A DNA stretch of 64,000 nucleotides from Acidimicrobiales bacterium (lineage in GTDB: Bacteria; Actinomycetota; Acidimicrobiia; Acidimicrobiales; Bin134). The first letter of the stretch is position 1; each line of letters opens with the position of its first letter. The stretch spans positions 988,909 through 1,052,908 of the forward strand of contig OZ220474.1 of NCBI GenBank assembly GCA_965115985.1, read 5' to 3'. The translations under genes and the position numbers were made by a program. Shown in pieces: positions 40,600-52,597 of this stretch. A model generated the notes under the pieces. The model saw nothing but the letters and a program-made list of their open reading frames with translations. It was not told the origin of the DNA and ran no database searches.

Positions 40600-40622
40600 G
40601 CTAGGAGAGTAGACCGCCGCGG

Positions 40623-40756
40623 GAGAACGAGAACATGAAAGCCCGACGCTCGACGGGAATGACTGGGCAGGAAAACGAGAACACCAATGCCCGACGCTCG
40701 GCGGGAATAACCAGGCGAAAGAACGAGAACATGAAAGCCCGACGCTCGACGGGAAT
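40623..40756 (+). repeat. 48-bp-period triplication of the start region of the downstream membrane-protein gene
   Basis: (g/a)a(g/a)aacgagaaca(tgaaa/ccaat)gcccgacgctcg(a/g)cgggaat occurs at 40623-40660, 40671-40708 and 40719-40756. Copies 1 and 3 carry ATG (40635, 40731). Confidence 0.85.
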
Positions 40757-41237
40757 AGTTGGGATAGCCATAGTCGTGTTGTTCGCGGCGTTCTGGATCG
40801 GGGCCACGATCTGGTTCTTCGGCGATGAGAACCCCGACCGCCTGGAGGATCGGGAATGGGTTGCCGGTGCCGAGGCCCGGTGCGCCCAGGCCCGGGACGA
40901 ACTCGACGAGCTGCCCGCGGCCCGTGATGCCGAGGACCTGGCCGACCGAGCCGACCAGATCGAGGCGTCAACCGCCCTGCTGGCCGGGATGGTCGCCGAC
41001 CTGGCTGCCACCGCACCCGGGGGGGCTGACGGCGAACTGCTGGGGTTGTGGTTCGGGAGTTGGGAAATCTATCTGGGGGATCGCCGGGCCCACGCCGAAG
41101 CTCTCCGGGCCGGCGATGATCGCCGGTTCAGGGTGAGTGTGGACCCGGAGCGCAACGAGGGTGTGGATGCCCTGCTGGATGCCTTCGCCGACCGCAACCG
41201 GATGCCCTCCTGCGGCGACCCCCTGGACATCGGCTAG
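40731..41237 (+). CDS. Hypothetical N-terminally membrane-anchored protein
   Basis: MKARRSTGIVGIAIVVLFAAFWIGATIWFF (one TM helix), then a soluble domain. The start could instead be the ATG at 40635 in repeat copy 1 (same frame). Confidence 0.5.
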   Translation: MKARRSTGIVGIAIVVLFAAFWIGATIWFFGDENPDRLEDREWVAGAEARCAQARDELDELPAARDAEDLADRADQIEASTALLAGMVADLAATAPGGADGELLGLWFGSWEIYLGDRRAHAEALRAGDDRRFRVSVDPERNEGVDALLDAFADRNRMPSCGDPLDIG

Positions 41238-42587: not shown

Positions 42588-42666
42588 CGCCGGACCATCC
42601 TTTCAGGATCGGAATCCTCCCCGGAGGACCACGAGCGGCCCTCCCGGTCGAACCATCGGATGACCG

Positions 42667-43107
42667 CTACCCGAAGCCGACCGCCAGCACGACTCCCAGC
42701 GTCGCCAGGGAAAAGCCGATTATGGTGAAGACCAAGGTGCGGGACAACTGAGCCATCTGAAGCGTCAATCTCCTCTCCATCGCCTTCATCTCCTCAAGCA
42801 AAGCCTCAAACCCAGAATCAACCCTCTCAAACCGGCTATCCATCTTGTCGAACCTAGCATCCACATCCTGAAACCTGGCGTTCATCTCGATGCGCAGCCG
42901 TTCCTCGGAGGCACGCAGGTCTCCCTTGGTGGCCAAACTCTCCCAAGGCACAGGCGGCAATGAATCCATCAGCGTCTCAGACTCCTCTCTACCCAACACC
43001 TCACCCAGCTTACCCAACAACGCCAACCGCCTGCCCTCACCCACCGACTCACTCCCCGACATAGCGGGCCTCCCCAGATACGACCGTCGAAGGGAGGCAA
43101 ACATCAC
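42667..43107 (-). CDS. Small coiled-coil protein with C-terminal TM anchor (DUF1640-like), paralog A
   Basis: (V)MFASLRRSY...LPPVPWESLATKGDLRASEERLRIEMNARF...LSRTLVFTIIGFSLATLGVVLAVGFG. GGAGG lies 5 nt upstream of GTG 43107. It is a paralog of 52611-53030. Confidence 0.6.
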   Translation of the reverse strand: MMFASLRRSYLGRPAMSGSESVGEGRRLALLGKLGEVLGREESETLMDSLPPVPWESLATKGDLRASEERLRIEMNARFQDVDARFDKMDSRFERVDSGFEALLEEMKAMERRLTLQMAQLSRTLVFTIIGFSLATLGVVLAVGFG

Positions 43108-43191
43108 TGCCTCCGAGTGAATGCCCGGCACCTTAGCGGCCCAACCCCCCAAGAGCAACCACCCCAAGCCACCAGACCCCCCTGCCACCCA

Positions 43192-43202
43192 CCCCCCCCC
43201 CC
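43192..43202. repeat. C11 homopolymer in a C-rich spacer upstream of hsdM
   Basis: I counted this directly. It lies about 100 nt upstream of hsdM ATG (43305). Confidence 0.9.
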
Positions 43203-43304
43203 ACAGGAATGGCACAGCACCCCGCGGCAACCACCCCGCAGGACCGGACAATCAACCATTTCCCCATCCGAGCTGTCCCAGAAAGGGAATAGACTTGACC
43301 CCTC

Positions 43305-44891
43305 ATGAGAACCACGACCCCCGGCTTGTCGGCAACCCCACCATCCGACTACCGATCCGAGCTGTGGCGAATGGCCGATGTGCTCCGGGGAAGCATGGAT
43401 GCCGCCGAGTACAAGCACGTAGTGCTCGGGCTGATATTCCTCAAGTACGTGTCAGATGCCTTCGAGGAGGCCCAAGCACAACTAGTGGCCGAGGCCGAGC
43501 ACAACCGGGGGATCGACCCCGAGGATCCCGACGAGTACCGAGCCGAGAGCATCTTCTGGGTGCCGGTCGAGGCACGCTGGTCGCACCTGCAAGGCCAGGC
43601 CCGCCAGGCCGACATCGGTCGGCGGATAGACGACGCGATGGATGCCATCGAACGCGACAACCCCGCCCTCAAAGACGTGCTGCCCAAGAACTACGCCCGA
43701 CTGGCCCTCGACCAGAGCCGCCTCGGGCAGGTGGTCGAACTGGTGAGCAACATCCAGGTGGGAGGGGCCGAGGCCAGAGCCCACGACGTTCTGGGCGATG
43801 TCTACGAGTACTTCCTCGAGCAGTTCGCGATGGCCGAAGGCAAAAAGGGCGGGGAGTTCTACACCCCCCGTTCGGTGGTGCGGCTGCTGGTGGCCATGCT
43901 GGAGCCCTACCACGGTCGCGTCTACGACCCCTGTTGCGGCTCCTCGGGCATGTTCATCAAGTCGGTGGAGTTCATTCGTGCCCACGCCACCGGCAACGGC
44001 AACGGCGGGAAGGGCGGCCGGGACATTTCGATCTATGGCCAGGAGTCCAACCACACCACCTGGAGGATGGCCCGGATGAACCTGGCGATTCGAGGCATCG
44101 AGGGCCAGATCGAGCACGGGGATATCTTTCACAACGACCGTCATCCCGACCTGAAGGCCGACTACATCCTCACCAACCCGCCCTTCAACGTCTCCGACTG
44201 GGGCGGTGAGCAACTACGAGACGACCAGCGCTGGGTCTACGGCGTTCCCCCGGTCGGCAACGCCAACTTCGCCTGGGTACAGCACTTCCTGCACCATCTC
44301 GCCCCGGGCGGACAGGCGGGCTTCGTGCTCGCCAACGGTTCGATGTCTTCAGCCCAGTCGGGCGAAGGCGAGATCCGCAAGAACATCATCGAGGCCGACC
44401 TGGTGGATTGCATGGTGGCCCTGCCAGGGCAGTTGTTCCGTTCGACCCAGATACCCGCGTGCCTGTGGTTCCTGTCGAAGGCCCGCCGCACCGGAGAACA
44501 CCGGGACCGCGGGGGCGAGACATTGTTCATCGATGCCCGGGCCCTGGGCCGCATGACCGACCGCACGCACCGCGAGCTCACCGACGACGACATCGCCCAC
44601 ATCGCCGACACCTACCACGCCTGGCAAGGCAAGGAAAGCAGCCGTGAGTATGCCGATGTGCCCGGTTTCTGCAAATCGGCCGACCTCGAAGAGATAAAAC
44701 GACACGGACACGTGCTCACCCCCGGGCGCTACGTCGGCGCAGCACCCCAGGAGGAGGACGACGAGTCGTTCGAGCAGAAGATGTTACGCCTCGCCGACCA
44801 ATGGCGCGAGCAAAGGGCCGAGGCCCGACGGCTGGACGCGCTGATAGATGCCAACCTGGAAGCACTGGGTTACGGTGAGAACTCCGACTAG
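43305..44891 (+). CDS. hsdM: Type I restriction-modification system, methyltransferase subunit
   Basis: [37 protein letters not shown] (HsdM N-domain), motif [12 protein letters not shown] and motif [13 protein letters not shown]. Confidence 0.95.
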
Positions 44892-44915
44892 CCGACCGCG
44901 ACAAGAGCAGGGCGA

Positions 44916-45338
44916 ATGCCGCTGGAGCTGACGAGCCTCCACCGCTCCATCCAGTCGCTGGCCGACCTGCTGGCCGTCGCCGAGAACGACGCGCGCTTGG
45001 ATCAGTTCACCGATGTAGAGCGCAAGGGTATCCGCGCCGGTGTTATCCAAAACTTCGAGGTCACCTACGAGCTCTCCTGGAAGCTGATGGCTCGCTGGCT
45101 CAACACCAACGTGAGCAGCGGCATCGCCGACGGCACCACCCGACGACAGTTGTTCCGCCTTGCAGCCCAACACCACCTAATCCATGATGTGGACGAGTGG
45201 ATGCAGCACCACGACGCTCGCAATATCACCTCCCATACCTACGACGAGACGAAGGCTGAACTGGCGCATCAGGCCGCTAGAAAGTTCGCAACCGATGCCC
45301 AGCACCTGCTCGAAGCACTGGAAGCGCGCAATGATTGA
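44916..45338 (+). CDS. HEPN-domain protein, HI0074 family (nucleotidyltransferase substrate-binding protein; putative RNase toxin of a HEPN/MNT pair)
   Basis: GVIQNFEVTYELSWKLMARWL and the Rx4H HEPN motif in HHDARNITSHTYDE. 140 aa. Confidence 0.85.
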   Translation: MPLELTSLHRSIQSLADLLAVAENDARLDQFTDVERKGIRAGVIQNFEVTYELSWKLMARWLNTNVSSGIADGTTRRQLFRLAAQHHLIHDVDEWMQHHDARNITSHTYDETKAELAHQAARKFATDAQHLLEALEARND

Positions 45339-46869
45339 CCTCAATCCCGTTCACCTCGCCATAGTCACCGACATCCTCGCCGAGCACGTACCCACCTACG
45401 AAGTAAGAGCTTTCGGCTCCCGCGCCACCTGGACAGCCAAGGACCACTCCGACCTAGACCTGGTGATAATCGGCGATGAACCGCTACCCACAAATACCCT
45501 GAGCTGCCTACGAGAAGCACTGGAGGAGTCACCATTACCGATACGAGTAGACGTCCTCGACTGGCACACAGTCCCCGAAAGCTGGCAGGAAGGAATTGAC
45601 GAAGATTGTGAAGTAGTTCAAGAAGTAATAGCTCATAATAAGTGGCAAAAAACGACGTTCGGTGAGTGCGCATATCTAGTTCGTGATACAGTATCACCCT
45701 CAGATTTCGATAACACCCCATACATAGGTCTAGAGCATATAGGTGAAGGCACTTTATCGTTGATAGGATCTGGAATAGCAAATGATGTCAGCAGTGCAAA
45801 GTTATTATTTCAGTGTAATGATATATTATTTGGTAAACTACGGCCTTATTTTCGCAAGCTAGCTAGACCACAATTTGGTGGGATATGCTCGACCGATATT
45901 TGGGTCGTGCGGCCAACAGATCAGGTTGACATTGGTTTTTTATTCTACCTCATGGCATCATCAAATTTTGTTGACACTGCAACACGAGGATCAGAAGGCA
46001 CCAGAATGCCTCGTGCAAAGTGGGACTTTGTCTCCCAACTTCCTATTTGGCTCCCACCCCTCGACGAGCAACGCCGGATCGCCCATATTCTTAGCACACT
46101 CGACGACCGCATTGAGTTGAACCGTCGCATGAGCAAGACCCTGGAAGAGATGGCACAAGCCCTCTTCCGTTCATGGTTCGTAAACTTCGACCCCGTACAC
46201 GCCAAAGTCGAAGGCCGACCCTCCGGACTCCCACCCGACCTCGACACCCTATTCCCCTCCTCCTTCCAAGAATCCCAACTAGGCCCAATCCCAAAAGGAT
46301 GGAAGGTGAAGAGCCTCGACGAAATCGCAGTGTTTACTAACGGTCTCGCGTTGCAGCGCTTCCCACCACATGATGACGACTGGTTACCAGTAATCAAGAT
46401 AGCGGAAATGAAACGTGGATATTCACAGAATACTAGTAAGGCTTCAGCGAGTATTGACCCAAAGTATATCGTTGAAGATAGCGACCTTTTGTTTTCTTGG
46501 TCGGGCAGTCTTGAAATTGTCCTGTGGGCAAACGGCCAAGGTGCGCTTAATCAACACCTGTTCAAGGTAACATCTTGTGAATTCCCTCTCTGGTTTTATC
46601 GCGGCTGGATAGCCAATTACTTAGAACACTTTCGCCAAATTGCTGCTAGTAAGGCTACAACTATGGGTCATATTCAGCGGCACCATCTGACAGATACAAA
46701 AGTAGTGATACCTCCACAAGATACTGTTTTCAAGAGTAATCGTTATCTTGCAACACTTACTGAACAGGAGGTGCGTACTGCGGTCCAAGCTCGCACACTT
46801 GCTGCTCAGCGTGATAAACTGCTGCCACCACTAGTTTCTGGCAAGTTAAGAACATGGAGGGCTAAGTAA
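45331..46869 (+). CDS. hsdS: In-frame fusion of an MNT-type minimal nucleotidyltransferase (HI0073-like antitoxin domain) with the Type I specificity subunit HsdS
   Basis: ATG 45331 overlaps the HEPN stop (ATGATTGA). The MNT motif is AFGSRATWTAKDHSDLDLVIIG. There is no stop and no ATG/GTG/TTG before the HsdS N-terminus (KWQKTTFGECAYLVRD). Two TRDs are separated by the conserved helix LPPLDEQRRIAHILSTLDDRIELNRRMSKTLEEMAQALFRSWFVNF. The C-terminal helix is ARTLAAQRDKLLPPLVSGKL. Confidence 0.85.
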   Translation: MIDLNPVHLAIVTDILAEHVPTYEVRAFGSRATWTAKDHSDLDLVIIGDEPLPTNTLSCLREALEESPLPIRVDVLDWHTVPESWQEGIDEDCEVVQEVIAHNKWQKTTFGECAYLVRDTVSPSDFDNTPYIGLEHIGEGTLSLIGSGIANDVSSAKLLFQCNDILFGKLRPYFRKLARPQFGGICSTDIWVVRPTDQVDIGFLFYLMASSNFVDTATRGSEGTRMPRAKWDFVSQLPIWLPPLDEQRRIAHILSTLDDRIELNRRMSKTLEEMAQALFRSWFVNFDPVHAKVEGRPSGLPPDLDTLFPSSFQESQLGPIPKGWKVKSLDEIAVFTNGLALQRFPPHDDDWLPVIKIAEMKRGYSQNTSKASASIDPKYIVEDSDLLFSWSGSLEIVLWANGQGALNQHLFKVTSCEFPLWFYRGWIANYLEHFRQIAASKATTMGHIQRHHLTDTKVVIPPQDTVFKSNRYLATLTEQEVRTAVQARTLAAQRDKLLPPLVSGKLRTWRAK

Positions 46870-47540
46870 TGTCGACTTCTGAAAACTCTAACGGTACTGA
46901 TAACTTATGGGAGGATGGAGTCCGTGCCTTCTTGAGTTACAAGGCTGAGTATCGGTCTCATGCTACTGAAATCAAGAAGTATCTGGGATCTTATGGAATC
47001 ACTACCTTTCTAGCTGGTGATGACATTCCTCCTCTAAGTGAATGGCAGAATGAGATAATGATGGCTCTAAAATCCATGGACTTTATGATTGCTCTACTAA
47101 CACCAGGATTCGAACAGAGTGTTTGGGTTAATCAAGAAATTGGGTATGCTCTTGGCCGGAACGTACCGGTGATCCCTGCCAGTCTTGGTTCAAAGCCATA
47201 CGGATTTATTGGCAAGTATCAAACCATAGATATTATCACAGAATTTTATGCCAACAGCAAGATATATTACGAAGGTGCAGTTAGACATATCTTCGAGGCT
47301 ATGCTTCGTATAGATGATGAAAATATTAATGAACTTGCGACCGATGCTTTTGTTAAAGCAGTATCTGCCTCTCCAGACTTTAGCACAACTGGAAAGTTGC
47401 TTAGTTTCCTTCCATTAATCAAGAACTTGACTGAAGAACAGACAGCTTTATTGATTGACTCCTATCGTAGCAATGATCAAGTACACAAATATTTGGGTTC
47501 CAAAGAGCTTCGCTATCGGCTAGGAATAGACCCGGTATAA
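46869..47540 (+). CDS. TIR-domain protein (N-terminal TIR_2/DUF1863-like domain plus a C-terminal region of about 95 aa with unknown function)
   Basis: AFLSYKAEYRSHATEIKKYLGSYGITTFLAGDDIPPLSEWQNEIMMALKSMDFMIALLTPGFEQSVWVNQEIGYALG matches the bacterial TIR pattern, including the conserved Glu. The start overlaps the hsdS stop (TAATG) and GGAGGG lies 7 nt upstream. GC is about 40% by eye. Confidence 0.7.
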   Translation: MSTSENSNGTDNLWEDGVRAFLSYKAEYRSHATEIKKYLGSYGITTFLAGDDIPPLSEWQNEIMMALKSMDFMIALLTPGFEQSVWVNQEIGYALGRNVPVIPASLGSKPYGFIGKYQTIDIITEFYANSKIYYEGAVRHIFEAMLRIDDENINELATDAFVKAVSASPDFSTTGKLLSFLPLIKNLTEEQTALLIDSYRSNDQVHKYLGSKELRYRLGIDPV

Positions 47541-47906
47541 CAGTATGTAAATAATAGAGATATATATAGAGATAGAATAATTCTCTGATATTTGTCCTTG
47601 ATAATCTTGCTTTTTATTCCTAAGTCATATCTCACTCTATAACTTGTATAATCAAATATTATATTGGGAGTACTATAAAAGAAACACCTCACTACTCATT
47701 TACAAACCTACTTTATAGACAACGTTATCTCACAATAGGGCTAGCTAGCTATGACATAAAACTGTTCTGTGCTGAGATAAGAATTGTCTATAGTACTGTA
47801 TATACTAGTGATCTATATATACCAGTGATATAGAAGGTGAGGGGGGACCCTGTTTTGAGTCCGTGTTTTGTGGGTCTTAGTCCTGGATTGTGGGAGGATG
47901 ATTGGG

Positions 47907-48185
47907 ATGAAACGTAAGCGTCATACGCCTGAGCAGGCGATTCGCAAGGTTCGTGAGGGCGAGCGGTTGTTGAACGGGGGGGCTTCGATCGGTGAGGTTG
48001 TGCGGGCGTTGGAGATCACTGAGTCCACGTGGAATCGGTGGCGGAACCAGTACGGGGGCCTGAAGGCTTCCGACGCCAAGGAGCTCAAGGCGCTTCGGGT
48101 GGAGAACACCCGGTTGAAGAAGTTGCTTGCCGAGGCGGAGTTGGACAAGGCGATGCTGAGGGATCTCGCCGAATCAAAATGGTGA
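47907..48185 (+). CDS. IS3-family transposase OrfA (HTH)
   Basis: MKRKRHTPEQAIRKVREGERLLNGGASIGEVVRALEITESTWNRWRNQY plus a leucine-zipper-like tail. GGGAGG lies 9 nt upstream of ATG 47907. Confidence 0.85.
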   Translation: MKRKRHTPEQAIRKVREGERLLNGGASIGEVVRALEITESTWNRWRNQYGGLKASDAKELKALRVENTRLKKLLAEAELDKAMLRDLAESKW

Positions 48186-49036
48186 CCCCGGATCGGCGTC
48201 GAGTCGCGGTTGAGCGGCTCCGGGCCGGGTTCGGGGTTTCCGAACGCAGGGCGTGCGAGGTGGTCGGCCAGCACCGGTCCACCCAGCGGCGACCCAAAAA
48301 GCCGGTATCGGACCGCGACCAGGAATTCCGCCGATGGCTTCGCTCCTTCGCCGCCGATCACCCGCGGTGGGGCTGGCGCAAGGCCCACGACGTCGCCGCG
48401 TCGAAGGATCTGGTGGTGAATCCCAAAAGGACCAGGGCCTTATGGCGCGACGAGGGCCTCCAGCGACCCCGGCAGAAAAAGAGCAAACAACGCCGTCGCG
48501 GCGACAACGCCGCGGCCCGGTTACGGGCCTGTCGTCCCAATCATGTTTGGGCACTGGATTTCCAGTTCGACGAGACTGCCCAGCACCGGAGATTGAAGCT
48601 GCTGAACGTCATCGACGAACACACCCGGGAGGCCTTGGCCATAGAAGTGGCCTACCGCATCGATGCCGACCGGGTCGTCGACGTGATCGCCGATCTGGTC
48701 GCTCAACGCGGCGCCCCCGAGCATCTGCGCATGGACAACGGTCCCGAACTCGTAGCCCAGGCGGTGCGGGACCGGTGCGAGACATGGGGCACCGACACCG
48801 CCTACATCGAACCCGGATCCCCATGGCAGAACCCCTTCATCGAGTCCTTCAACGGGCGACTCAGAGACGAATGCCTCAACATCGAGGACTTCGCCAACCT
48901 CACCGAAGCCAAAATAGTCATCCAGGACTGGAAAAACGAGTACAATAACTACCGGCCCCATCGGGCGCTCGACGGGAAACCACCCGCCGCCTACGCAGCC
49001 CAATGGGCCAAACAACACCAAACAAAACACCCATAA
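48179..49036 (+). CDS. IS3-family transposase OrfB (DDE/rve integrase core); may be made as an OrfAB fusion by -1 frameshifting near 48170-48182
   Basis: HVWALDFQFDET (D), LRMDNGPELV (D) and NPFIESFNGRLRDECLN (E). The frame is -1 relative to OrfA. ATG 48179 overlaps the OrfA stop. Confidence 0.85.
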   Translation: MVTPDRRRVAVERLRAGFGVSERRACEVVGQHRSTQRRPKKPVSDRDQEFRRWLRSFAADHPRWGWRKAHDVAASKDLVVNPKRTRALWRDEGLQRPRQKKSKQRRRGDNAAARLRACRPNHVWALDFQFDETAQHRRLKLLNVIDEHTREALAIEVAYRIDADRVVDVIADLVAQRGAPEHLRMDNGPELVAQAVRDRCETWGTDTAYIEPGSPWQNPFIESFNGRLRDECLNIEDFANLTEAKIVIQDWKNEYNNYRPHRALDGKPPAAYAAQWAKQHQTKHP

Positions 49037-49456
49037 CCCATGGACTCACAAACGGGTCCCCCTCAAAGGAATAGTGGCTATGATATCTATCGAAGTGTAT
49101 AGATCATTGCAGTAAAATATTCTGACGCTCTTCGAGCATATACCCGGACTATAAAATGGTGGTGTGGTTGATATGTTCGTGGTCTAGCAGAAGGAGCTTC
49201 TGCTGGTAACTGATTATGGCGACACACTTGGCTGGCTCCGCATGCAATTGGCTAGTGGCGATCTCTCGCCCAGATAGCACGAGGTAATCGATAATATGTG
49301 TCTGATAGCTGGTGTCGATTTGTGCCAGGAGCAGTTGCAGATTCGATGCGAGGACCCATTTGATCTCGCTAGGGCTGTGCAGCGAGTTGCAGAAGTATGT
49401 GAAAAGCTTGATATTATCATGGTTACTGCTGAGGTTGCCAAGCCCGCCATGGACGC

Positions 49457-52597
<3,141 letters not shown>

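Follow-up and report, generated by a model that had tools for sequence, protein, structure and literature searches.

That HEPN RNase genes cluster with restriction-modification (R-M) systems is an old finding, and the case for a coupling of immunity to suicide largely rests on PrrC/EcoprrI. PrrC, an anticodon nuclease encoded within the Type Ic system EcoprrI, is described as an 'R-M guardian' (PMC3710099, PMC12707154); the R-M proteins keep it in a latent state until a phage inhibits restriction, at which point it is set free, and it provides a functional model for the locus considered here.

The closest characterised system in molecular terms is lpg2920/lpg2921 of Legionella pneumophila, a type VII toxin-antitoxin pair in which the MNT protein AMPylates tyrosine Y105 of the HEPN protein (PMC11586414; PDB 8xdj, 8xeo, 8xeh). 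In that system lpg2920 is a toxic RNase, AMPylated on the tyrosine of its motif, and the MNT binds the HEPN weakly and only in its tetrameric form; the same study suggests for the R and H of RX4HXY a possible role in contacting ATP instead of forming the RNase site (PMC11586414). The founding type VII systems are the HepT/MntA pairs of Shewanella oneidensis (SO_3166/SO_3165) and Aphanizomenon flos-aquae, which are neutralised through oligo-AMPylation of a tyrosine next to the RNase motif, and HEPNs with RX4HXY were toxic and neutralised by their own MNT in every pair tested (PMC7641770). The role of the RX4HXY motif is known from both studies (PMC7641770, PMC11586414). A further variant, FhepTA, is a single chain of fused MNT and HEPN, in which fusion to the partner alters the stability and stoichiometry of the MNT while AMPylation is retained (PMC13000451).

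Layout of the locus

The stretch of DNA that was analysed, referred to as the window, is 64 kb long and contains a Type I R-M operon with the following features.

43305..44891, + strand: hsdM, Type I methyltransferase subunit, 528 aa (PF12161 HsdM_N and PF02384 N6_Mtase E 2e-105; PADLOC MTase_I E 1e-202)
44916..45338, + strand: HEPN gene of the HI0074 family, 140 aa, a predicted RNase toxin (PF08780, TIGR01987, PDB 1jog)
45219..45242, + strand: RX4HXY motif (R102 NITS H107 T Y109) in the HEPN, read from the sequence
45331..45624, + strand: MNT domain of the fusion ORF, aa 1-98 (PF18765, PF01909, 1no5, Foldseek)
45415..45459, + strand: GSX10DXD catalytic motif (G29 S30 ... D41 L D43) of the MNT, read from the sequence
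45625..45642, + strand: linker from MNT to HsdS, aa 99-104, VIAHNK, with no stop and no start codon; the G+C content falls here
45643..46869, + strand: HsdS proper, aa 105-512 (PF01420 twice, PADLOC Specificity_I, AlphaFold2, Foldseek)
46060-46182, + strand: central conserved helix of HsdS, aa 244-284, between TRD1 and TRD2 (AlphaFold2)
46717-46839, + strand: C-terminal conserved helix of HsdS, aa 463-503, after TRD2 (AlphaFold2)
46869..47540, + strand: TIR-domain gene, 223 aa, variable cargo of the operon (PF13676 TIR_2 E 3e-15; weak similarity to ThsB and ThcB4)
47842..49062, + strand: IS3-family insertion sequence, outside the system (37-nt imperfect terminal inverted repeats; HTH_Tnp_1 and rve domains)
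49457..52597, + strand: hsdR, Type I restriction subunit, 1046 aa, full length (TIGR00348 E 2e-179; PADLOC REase_I PDLC03040, residues 4-1042)

The Type I R-M set is complete, with hsdM, the hsdS part and hsdR each full length and strongly matched to their families. The HEPN gene starts 24 nt past the hsdM stop, the fusion ORF runs from the ATG at 45331 to the stop at 46869 (512 aa, + strand) and overlaps the HEPN stop by 8 nt (45331-45338), and the ATG of the TIR gene overlaps the hsdS stop by 1 nt. TIR genes are also found at the equivalent position in four related loci (L002, L031, L045 and L070). The IS3 element lies between the TIR gene and hsdR, separating the latter from the rest of the operon. 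A scan of 42600-49500 for promoters and terminators gave counts no different from chance.

The HEPN product matches PF08780 (NTase_sub_bind, E 2e-33) and scores 75.2 bits against TIGR01987, the HI0074 family, for which the curated cut-off is 55.8 bits; its matches in the PDB are HI0074 itself (1jog, E 5e-16) and the L. pneumophila HEPN toxin (8xdj, E 4e-9). Among the HEPNs of related loci (n = 76), RX4H is present in 73, the full RX4HXY in 70, the motif tyrosine in 74 and E48 in 72, and by its position in the motif Y109 is predicted to be the site of AMPylation. The MNT domain (residues 1-98) matches PF18765 (E 9e-8), PF01909 (E 2e-6) and, across its whole length, HI0073 (1no5, E 5e-20). Its residues G29-S30-X10-D41-L-D43 fit GSX10DXD exactly, and G29, S30, R31, S40, D41 and D43 are invariant in all 74 aligned fusion proteins, while D74 and, from the alignment and the AlphaFold2 model, L60, A63, F64, S67, L69 and P70 reach at least 90% conservation. 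The retention of both motifs points to selection on the catalytic residues. In the model this part superimposes on HI0073 with a target-normalised TM of 0.94 (rmsd 1.0 Å) and on the L. pneumophila MNT (8xeo) with 0.84.

The remainder of the ORF (residues ~105-512) contains two PF01420 stretches and matches PADLOC Specificity_I (E 9e-81). The AlphaFold2 model of the whole fusion (pLDDT 92.3, pTM 0.76) has two TRDs and two long helices, the conserved spacers at 244-284 and 463-503, and Foldseek aligns it with the solved HsdS structures 7vru_C, 3okg, 1yf2 and 2y7c. The E-values of these domain and structure matches exclude chance. In unfused relatives the conserved W of the HsdS N-terminus, W105 here, lies 3-5 residues after the start. 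In-frame ATG, GTG or TTG codons of the fusion are found at aa 1, at aa 45 within the MNT domain, and next as a TTG at aa 144, about 40 residues inside TRD1, and with no usable start between aa 45 and aa 144 HsdS lacks a start of its own. Production of a normal-size HsdS from an internal start can be rejected, both on this ground and because no such start is conserved in the homologues: 30 of 66 fused homologues have none in the 20 codons past the MNT domain, and a Shine-Dalgarno-like motif with a start past the domain is found in only nine of the 66.

A preliminary description of this DNA had placed a HEPN/MNT pair between hsdM and hsdS, identified the HEPN as HI0074-type from the motif RNITSH, noted the 8-nt overlap, and proposed that the MNT domain runs without a stop into a complete two-TRD HsdS that has no independent start. 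All of this anatomy is upheld, the motif reading RNITSHTY (aa 102-109), with hsdM upstream of the pair, the hsdS part fused at its 3' side and hsdR downstream.

Comparison with known systems

The resemblance to lpg2920/lpg2921 extends to the PF08780 HI0074-like HEPN (E 4e-9), the short MNT without an alpha-4 helix (TM 0.84), the order of the genes, HEPN first, with an 8-bp overlap, and the pairing of RX4HXY with GSX10DXD. The L. pneumophila MNT, however, stands alone as a protein of about 100 aa, with no R-M system mentioned, whereas here it forms the N-terminus of a 512-aa HsdS. HI0073/HI0074 of Haemophilus influenzae (1no5, 1jog) provide the best matches in both sequence and structure (E 5e-20 and 5e-16, TM 0.94). 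Unlike the fusion in the window, they are separate polypeptides, structural-genomics proteins annotated as a two-protein nucleotidyltransferase. To our knowledge there has been no study of their toxicity or of a link to R-M.

With HepT/MntA the locus shares the class I pair of motifs: a HEPN-clan protein with RX4HXY and a neighbouring MNT with GSX10DXD, both features by which that class is recognised (PMC7641770), are present. The same definition includes two small separate proteins (MNT <150 aa) with the MNT upstream, from which the window departs because the MNT lies within a 512-aa protein and the HEPN is upstream, the HEPN-first order being normal in the HI0074/lpg2920 subfamily. HepT also differs in belonging to DUF86 (PF01934), which reaches no more than 20.7 bits here and so stays under its cut-off, and MntA in being encoded first, in needing its alpha-4 helix for binding and in being unfused. 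Membership of the DUF86 HepT/MntA equivalogs was rejected, as the HEPN scores 20.6 bits against HepT_toxin (NF047751) and the MNT 30.4 bits against MntA_antitoxin (NF047752), both below the 60-bit cut-offs; the pair belongs to the HI0074/HI0073 branch. PrrC likewise is a HEPN-fold RNase encoded inside a Type I R-M operon, but it is a large ABC-ATPase-HEPN protein bound non-covalently to the Hsd complex, without an MNT, AMPylation or fusion to an Hsd subunit, whereas in the window the antitoxin is covalently part of HsdS. The partner joined to the MNT in FhepTA is the cognate toxin, whereas the partner of the MNT in the window is a subunit of an unrelated immunity system, with the toxin encoded by a gene of its own.

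No MNT::HsdS fusion was found described in the text of open-access papers and bioRxiv, including four censuses (PMC3710099, PMC2701414, PMC3632139, PMC3506569) and a 2025 review of R-M systems (PMC12707154), in agreement with the earlier statement that none had been characterised; Figure 5 of the HEPN census carries a label 'RM_TRD' (PMC3710099).

Recurrence of the fusion and retention of its partner

The distribution of the fusion was studied in the 120 best protein clusters, the 80 best species-level loci and the 150 best representatives of MNT clusters at 50% identity; the wider pools comprise at least 566 genome loci and 1081 cluster representatives. An MNT motif lies directly N-terminal to HsdS in about 90 of the 120 protein clusters, at 43-70% identity, and the fused architecture is found in 67 of the 80 genome loci. 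Of the 150 best MNT representatives, 72 are at least 450 aa long, 29 more carry PF01420 in a Pfam scan of 65 mid-length representatives (out of 149 retrieved), and only nine are 125 aa or shorter. Whether MNT::HsdS fusions recur in databases, a question raised at the outset, is thus answered positively, and the earlier treatment of the junction as a peculiarity of a single genome in need of re-sequencing does not hold, the architecture being widespread and conserved. The MNT scaffold is shared among these proteins, while the types of TRD1 and TRD2 are many and different and the linkers range from roughly 5 to 35 aa, which implies that the fusion has persisted through extensive swapping of specificity.

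The fused loci come mostly from sponge-symbiont lineages, with source organisms labelled as at least eight phyla. Sponge symbionts are heavily exposed to phage and foreign DNA, and the concentration of fused loci in them is a further lead. A search for the fusion in cultured organisms and on plasmids (PLSDB, tblastn) found none; a PLSDB match of 88% coverage on plasmid pFA12 of Fulvitalea axinellae proved to be an ordinary HsdS of 407 aa, not a fusion.

The HEPN gene lies directly upstream in 62 of the 67 fused loci, with an overlap of 4 or 8 nt in 60 of them, and is also found upstream of divergent MNT clades. Operons with an unfused HsdS of the same TRDs lack both HEPN and MNT, so that the cassette is present or absent as a whole. 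The HEPN survey match is missing in five of the 67 fused loci: in four (L028, L064, L071 and L072) the HEPN is absent and the MNT motif intact, and in the fifth (L043) a divergent HEPN is present, split over two ORFs. Fused loci without a HEPN may reflect either a HEPN-independent role of the MNT or recent loss of the toxin. Free-standing HEPN-then-MNT pairs with the 4- or 8-nt overlap occur without R-M genes in seven loci (L058, L060, L066, L074, L076, L077 and L088), whereas within R-M operons that have an intact HsdS, MNT and HsdS are separate genes only in L012 and L024. When the MNT domains are placed in a rough tree by neighbour joining (100 residues, no support values), fused and free-standing forms intermingle, which weakly suggests repeated fusion or fission and not one accident.

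Proposed working and alternative explanations

What is directly observed is how the locus is built, that the fusion, the gene pair and the two motifs are conserved, and that the proteins have characterised homologues. On balance, it seems somewhat probable that these features represent a class I type VII HEPN/MNT cassette, of the HI0074/HI0073 and lpg2920/lpg2921 subfamily, built into a Type I R-M operon, in which the antitoxin enzyme is one polypeptide with HsdS and AMPylates the HEPN, such that control of the toxin depends on HsdS. In this proposal hsdM, the HEPN gene, MNT::hsdS and the TIR gene would be carried on one transcript, the 8-nt overlap coupling translation of MNT::hsdS to that of the HEPN. 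The MNT-bearing HsdS would be the only HsdS made, and hence each M2S1 methylase and R2M2S1 endonuclease complex would contain one adenylyltransferase. The MNT domain would AMPylate Tyr109 of RX4HXY and hold the HEPN RNase inactive; with the neutralising activity present only within HsdS, control of the toxin would follow both how much HsdS is supplied and whether it is intact, and perhaps also how it assembles or what conformation it takes. Newly made HEPN would then stay unmodified if the locus were lost, if an hsdS allele lacking the MNT took the place of the resident one, or if a phage attacked the complex, and the unmodified HEPN would cleave RNA and bring about arrest or death of the cell.

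The steps of this proposal differ in strength. By analogy with the characterised pairs, the HEPN is quite probably AMPylated by the MNT domain, and the AMPylation logic of the preliminary description appears well grounded, given the conservation of RX4HXY and GSX10DXD and the same order and 8-bp overlap in lpg2920/lpg2921. A functional coupling between toxin release and the condition of the R-M system, in the manner of a guardian or an addiction module, is suggested by the architecture and is put forward tentatively. Neutralisation in type VII systems is covalent, and release of the toxin requires de-AMPylation or new synthesis. As we know of no de-AMPylase, a simple addiction model is weakened. 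The weak, tetramer-only binding seen in L. pneumophila also counts against the proposal, in which the MNT domain would act while tethered to a large complex. The broadest form of the proposal is possible but doubtful, namely that MNT::HsdS with HEPN constitutes a widespread and so far undescribed kind of R-M guardian. The enzyme that AMPylates the HEPN would then be carried by the Type I complex itself and gated by whether HsdS is free or assembled, is bound to DNA, or has been blocked by phage DNA mimics such as Ocr or ArdA.

It is rather unlikely that the fusion is a frozen accident, in which the cassette landed between hsdM and hsdS, the stop codon of the MNT was lost, and the tethering, without functional meaning, spread with a mobile R-M locus as a harmless change that is hard to undo, the pair working as a conventional toxin-antitoxin module complete in itself and at most stabilising the island. 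The existence of the same pair, with the same overlap, away from R-M genes is in keeping with such an origin, as are the short, variable and unconserved linker, the R-M loci of the same family that work without the cassette, and the persistence of fused loci that have lost the HEPN. Undoing the fusion would need a new stop, start and ribosome-binding site, so persistence alone is no proof of selection for tethering. An accident sits less well with the nearest MNT relatives being overwhelmingly fused (67 among the 80 loci; 101 or more among the 150 best representatives of MNT clusters), with the separate arrangement being limited, in an R-M setting with an intact HsdS, to two loci, or, more weakly, with three deeply divergent MNT clades that are all fused and with the scatter of free-standing MNTs among fused ones in the tree.

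A two-protein nucleotidyltransferase was the first proposal for HI0073/HI0074, and HEPN and MNT might correspondingly form not a toxin-antitoxin pair but an enzyme delivered by HsdS to HsdM, HsdR, DNA ends or a small molecule, thereby regulating or extending restriction. This is quite improbable. NCBIfam does name the HEPN family 'nucleotidyltransferase substrate-binding subunit', the possible ATP contacts of R and H in the L. pneumophila study and the retention of the MNT motif in fused loci without a HEPN would agree with it, and fusion to a DNA-targeting subunit would suit an enzyme directed at DNA or at the complex; yet the toxicity and MNT-dependent neutralisation of RX4HXY HEPNs in all pairs tested (PMC7641770), the AMPylation of the homologous RNase lpg2920 on the motif tyrosine (PMC11586414), retained in 74 of the 76 HEPNs, and the lack of any conserved extra gene pointing to another target argue against it. 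That the junction is a sequencing or assembly error or a recent inactivating mutation is scarcely credible. The drop in G+C from ~0.58 to ~0.40 at this point could, taken alone, suggest a chimeric join, but TRD2 is also low in G+C, indicating that the composition tracks the TRDs and not the junction. A local sequencing error is excluded, because the ORF runs on without interruption in many unrelated assemblies, complete chromosomes included; one related locus (L023) aligns at 74.6% DNA identity through hsdM, HEPN, MNT, TRD1 and the central region, and the AlphaFold2 model has a pLDDT of 79-83 across the junction. The missed stop or frameshift for which a check had been advised can accordingly be dismissed.

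Implications for immunity and cell suicide

The only label seen on the fusion proteins in databases is 'restriction endonuclease subunit S'. Those PADLOC Specificity_I models with a match to the fusion protein of the window begin at or past residue 100, leaving the MNT domain uncovered. Hence the toxin-antitoxin component is invisible in censuses of defence systems. Makarova et al. (PMC3632139) observed that immunity loci carry toxins but apparently no antitoxins of well-characterised families; the locus in the window, by contrast, does have its antitoxin, built into an immunity subunit, an arrangement conserved in at least 67 species and at least eight labelled phyla. The fusion may thereby physically link cell suicide to DNA-based immunity. 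If the guardian reading is true, disabling restriction would automatically free the RNase activity for abortive infection, and the locus would represent a direct molecular form of immunity-suicide coupling, in which the antitoxin is supplied by the immunity locus itself. The system is simple and genetically tractable, and lends itself to the question of whether a suicide nuclease is controlled by an innate immune complex, and by what means.

Architecture of the operon and of its specificity gene

The preliminary description had proposed that a HEPN ORF overlaps by 8 nt an MNT nucleotidyltransferase domain, which itself continues in frame into a complete HsdS with two target-recognition parts (TRDs) and no start of its own. 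Each of these elements was recovered, within a restriction-modification (R-M) operon in which an IS3-family element between the TIR gene and hsdR interrupts no gene.

Features of the R-M operon in the window
43305-44891, plus strand: hsdM, first gene of the series
24-nt spacer between hsdM and the HEPN gene
44916-45338, plus strand: HEPN ORF, 140 aa, HI0074 family
45331 (ATG) to 46869 (stop), plus strand: MNT::HsdS ORF, 512 aa, overlapping the HEPN gene, which stops at 45338, by 8 nt
46869-47540, plus strand: TIR-domain ORF, its ATG sharing 1 nt with the hsdS stop (TAATG)
AT-rich spacer between the TIR ORF and the IS3-family element
47842-49062, plus strand: IS3-family element (orfA 47868-48185, orfB to 49036; 37-nt imperfect terminal inverted repeats)
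49457-52597, plus strand: hsdR, full length

The HEPN protein matches PF08780 (E = 2e-33) and scores 75 bits against TIGR01987 (cut-off 55.8). Its matches in the PDB include 1jog (E = 5e-16) and 8xdj, the HEPN toxin of Legionella pneumophila (E = 4e-9). It carries the motif R102-NITS-H107-T-Y109; among 76 HEPN proteins from related loci, RX4H is found in 73 and RX4HXY in 70. E48, the counterpart of the Mg-site glutamate in the Legionella enzyme (PMC11586414), is kept in 72 of 76 HEPN proteins from related loci. Residues 1-98 of the fused protein form the MNT domain, which matches PF18765 and PF01909, aligns end to end with HI0073 (1no5, E = 5e-20) and contains an exact GSX10DXD motif (G29-S30-X10-D41-L-D43). 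Across 74 aligned fusion proteins G29, S30, R31, S40, D41 and D43 are invariant, and conservation of D74, the third acidic residue, is 90% or higher. Judged by this motif conservation, both partners look catalytically competent throughout the family.

The remainder of the protein is a full HsdS, with two PF01420 stretches and a match to the PADLOC profile Specificity_I (E = 9e-81). In-frame ATG, GTG or TTG codons occur at aa 1 and aa 45 and next only at aa 144, well within TRD1, and every HsdS made is predicted to carry the MNT domain. The AlphaFold2 model (74 homologues) is a confident one, with a pLDDT of 92.3, falling to 79-83 across the MNT/HsdS junction, and a pTM of 0.76. Foldseek matched this model to the solved HsdS chains 7vru_C, 3okg, 1yf2 and 2y7c, to HI0073 (TM 0.94 normalised to target, rmsd 1.0 Å), to the L. 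pneumophila MNT (0.84) and to MntA.

Yao et al. (PMC7641770) defined class I HEPN/MNT pairs by two motifs: RX4HXY, in a protein of family PF01934 or PF08780, and beside it GSX10DXD in a PF01909 protein. Both motifs are present in the window pair, which scores below the cut-offs of the NCBIfam equivalogs for HepT and MntA and belongs to the HI0074/HI0073 branch. The one characterised member of this branch, L. pneumophila lpg2920/lpg2921 (PMC11586414), likewise has the HEPN gene first and an 8-bp gene overlap. An annotated free-standing pair on a Legionella adelaidensis plasmid has the same order with an 11-nt overlap. The MNT C-terminus lies outside the interface in this branch, which leaves it free to run on into HsdS; the parts that form the interface correspond to L60, A63, F64, S67, L69 and P70, a block whose conservation among the fusions is 90% or more.

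Base composition is a mosaic across window positions 45600-47800. The host and hsdM have a G+C of about 0.62-0.68, and HEPN and MNT one of 0.57-0.59. A drop sets in exactly at the MNT/HsdS linker and reaches 0.39-0.41 in TRD1; G+C then recovers to 0.55-0.57 in the central conserved HsdS region before sinking once more, to 0.43-0.46 in TRD2 and to 0.31-0.45 in the TIR gene. The pattern points to lower-G+C donors as the source of the TRD cassettes, brought onto a MNT::HsdS scaffold that was already resident; the TIR cargo gene also looks imported, the scaffold, including the MNT domain, having stayed. The TIR gene (PF13676, E = 3e-15), probably coupled in translation to hsdS by the TAATG overlap, shows weak similarity to ThsB and ThcB4, and TIR or SEFIR genes follow MNT::hsdS at the equivalent position in four related loci (L002, L031, L045, L070), making it a second possible effector in the operon. 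Elsewhere, positions 40622-40757 hold 2.9 copies of a 48-nt repeat unit (83% matches), just upstream of a minus-strand gene that looks like tyrS by its translated ORF, the sole basis for this label; two mechanical ORFs show the repeat as recurring peptide motifs.

Recurrence of the fusion and variation of the cassette

The preliminary description had called for a database search for further fusions, and these proved abundant. Among the best 120 clusters in a whole-protein search, about 90 proteins of 480-650 aa have the MNT motif immediately ahead of HsdS, on its N-terminal side (99% query coverage, 43-70% identity); where the source labels them, it is solely as 'restriction endonuclease subunit S'. 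They share the MNT domain and two conserved HsdS helices, joined by linkers of roughly 5 to 35 residues, and carry many unrelated types of TRD1 and TRD2. Unfused HsdS relatives begin 3-5 residues ahead of the conserved tryptophan that is W105 in the window.

With one genome taken per species, at least 566 loci encode a relative of the MNT domain. MNT and HsdS form a single ORF at 67 of the best 80, with HEPN immediately upstream in 62 (overlapping by 8 nt in 48 and 4 nt in 12) and, within the stretch fetched, hsdM upstream in 64 and hsdR downstream in 57. The 13 unfused loci comprise seven free-standing HEPN-then-MNT pairs lacking R-M genes, two cut by a contig end, two with a separate HsdS downstream (L012, L024) and two decayed remnants (L007, L036). 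When the MNT domain alone was searched against representatives of 50%-identity clusters, 1081 were found at E <= 1e-10. Among the 150 best of these, 72 reach 450 aa or more and only nine are no longer than 125 aa; PF01420 occurs in 29 of the 65 mid-length representatives, where no other partner domain recurs. From these lengths and domains, this MNT clade occurs mainly as an HsdS fusion. No fused MNT::HsdS was found among PLSDB plasmids.

Most hosts belong to sponge-associated or other uncultured lineages, including Dehalococcoidia/SAR202, Poribacteria, Caldilineaceae, Acidimicrobiia, Latescibacterota, Acidobacteriota, Phycisphaera, Deltaproteobacteria, Candidatus Thiosymbion and Acetothermia. 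Marine-sponge symbionts dominate the best 80 genome loci, namely Poribacteria, SAR202/Dehalococcoidia, Caldilineaceae, Candidatus Poriferisodalis (the best hit in Acidimicrobiia), Latescibacterota and Candidatus Spongiisociaceae; the window genome is probably that of a sponge-associated acidimicrobiian.

The HEPN/MNT cassette is all-or-none: unfused HsdS proteins with the window's TRDs (59-60% identity) lie in hsdM-hsdS-hsdR operons devoid of both HEPN and MNT. A PF08780 HEPN gene still directly precedes deeply divergent fused MNT clades and a variant with two tandem MNT domains, with a 4- or 8-nt overlap. Tandem pairs, either of MNT domains before HsdS or of HEPN genes before MNT::hsdS, are seen in three related proteins of 641-650 aa (P0093, P0107, P0011) and at L003 and L078. 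In a rough neighbour-joining tree, which carries no support values, free-standing MNTs fall at several positions among fused ones, hinting at repeated fusion or fission. At the decayed locus L007 (5252-6005), a canonical MntA-then-HepT pair (DUF86-type, RNLLIHGY) directly precedes a truncated, unfused HI0073-type MNT, so that two HEPN/MNT subfamilies are stacked in one decayed R-M locus.

A gene of about 580 aa encoding Schlafen/AlbA_2 and HATPase_c_4 domains recurs between hsdM and HEPN/MNT::hsdS or hsdS. HEPN is absent beside it in L064, L071 and L086; in L028 its reading frame closes on what is left of a deleted HEPN gene, the final residues …LEARND, with the 8-nt overlap retained.

Positions of the Schlafen/AlbA_2 + HATPase_c_4 gene in related loci
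L002: 4802-6556
L028: 4728-6008
L064: 4180-5934
L071: 4181-5935
L086: 4195-5937
L093: 3193-4887

Proposed working and significance

The gene overlap suggests that HEPN is translationally coupled to MNT::hsdS. In the characterised class I pair, MntA places AMP on the motif tyrosine and neutralises the RNase (PMC7641770); by analogy, the MNT domain probably AMPylates Y109 of HEPN, silencing the toxin. It is markedly less probable that the pair is a two-protein nucleotidyltransferase system with some other target, although four fused loci out of 67 (L028, L064, L071, L072) have an intact MNT motif but no HEPN; in a fifth without a HEPN match, L043, a divergent HEPN is split over two ORFs. HEPN and MNT catalytic motifs are intact. 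That the fusion is an artefact or a pseudogene is very improbable: the arrangement is maintained over many lineages and specificities, and the related locus L023 shows 74.6% DNA identity to the window, unbroken through hsdM, HEPN, MNT, TRD1 and the central region.

As the neutralising enzyme is physically part of the specificity subunit, this architecture raises the possibility, advanced tentatively, that toxin control is tied to HsdS supply, and perhaps to HsdS assembly or conformation. A functionally neutral, frozen fusion is rather doubtful, but a fusion once formed is by its nature difficult to undo, so that persistence does not prove selection. Were toxin control tied to HsdS, locus loss or hsdS replacement might be penalised, as in addiction, or the system might act as a PrrC-like guardian that fires once a phage disables the complex (model from PMC3710099, PMC12707154). 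AMPylation being covalent, toxin release would require de-AMPylation or fresh synthesis.

HEPN genes in R-M loci, HEPN/MNT toxin-antitoxin pairs, AMPylating antitoxins and R-M guardians are all already known, and the MNT::HsdS fusion is no new principle. The preliminary description knew of no characterised fusion of this kind, and likewise no description of one was found in full-text searches of open-access papers and bioRxiv preprints, including HEPN, toxin-antitoxin and defence censuses and a 2025 review of R-M biology, which names only PrrC and PARIS as guardians (PMC12707154). What gives the fusion real interest for specialists in toxin-antitoxin modules and defence systems is that it makes the coupling of immunity to suicide directly testable.
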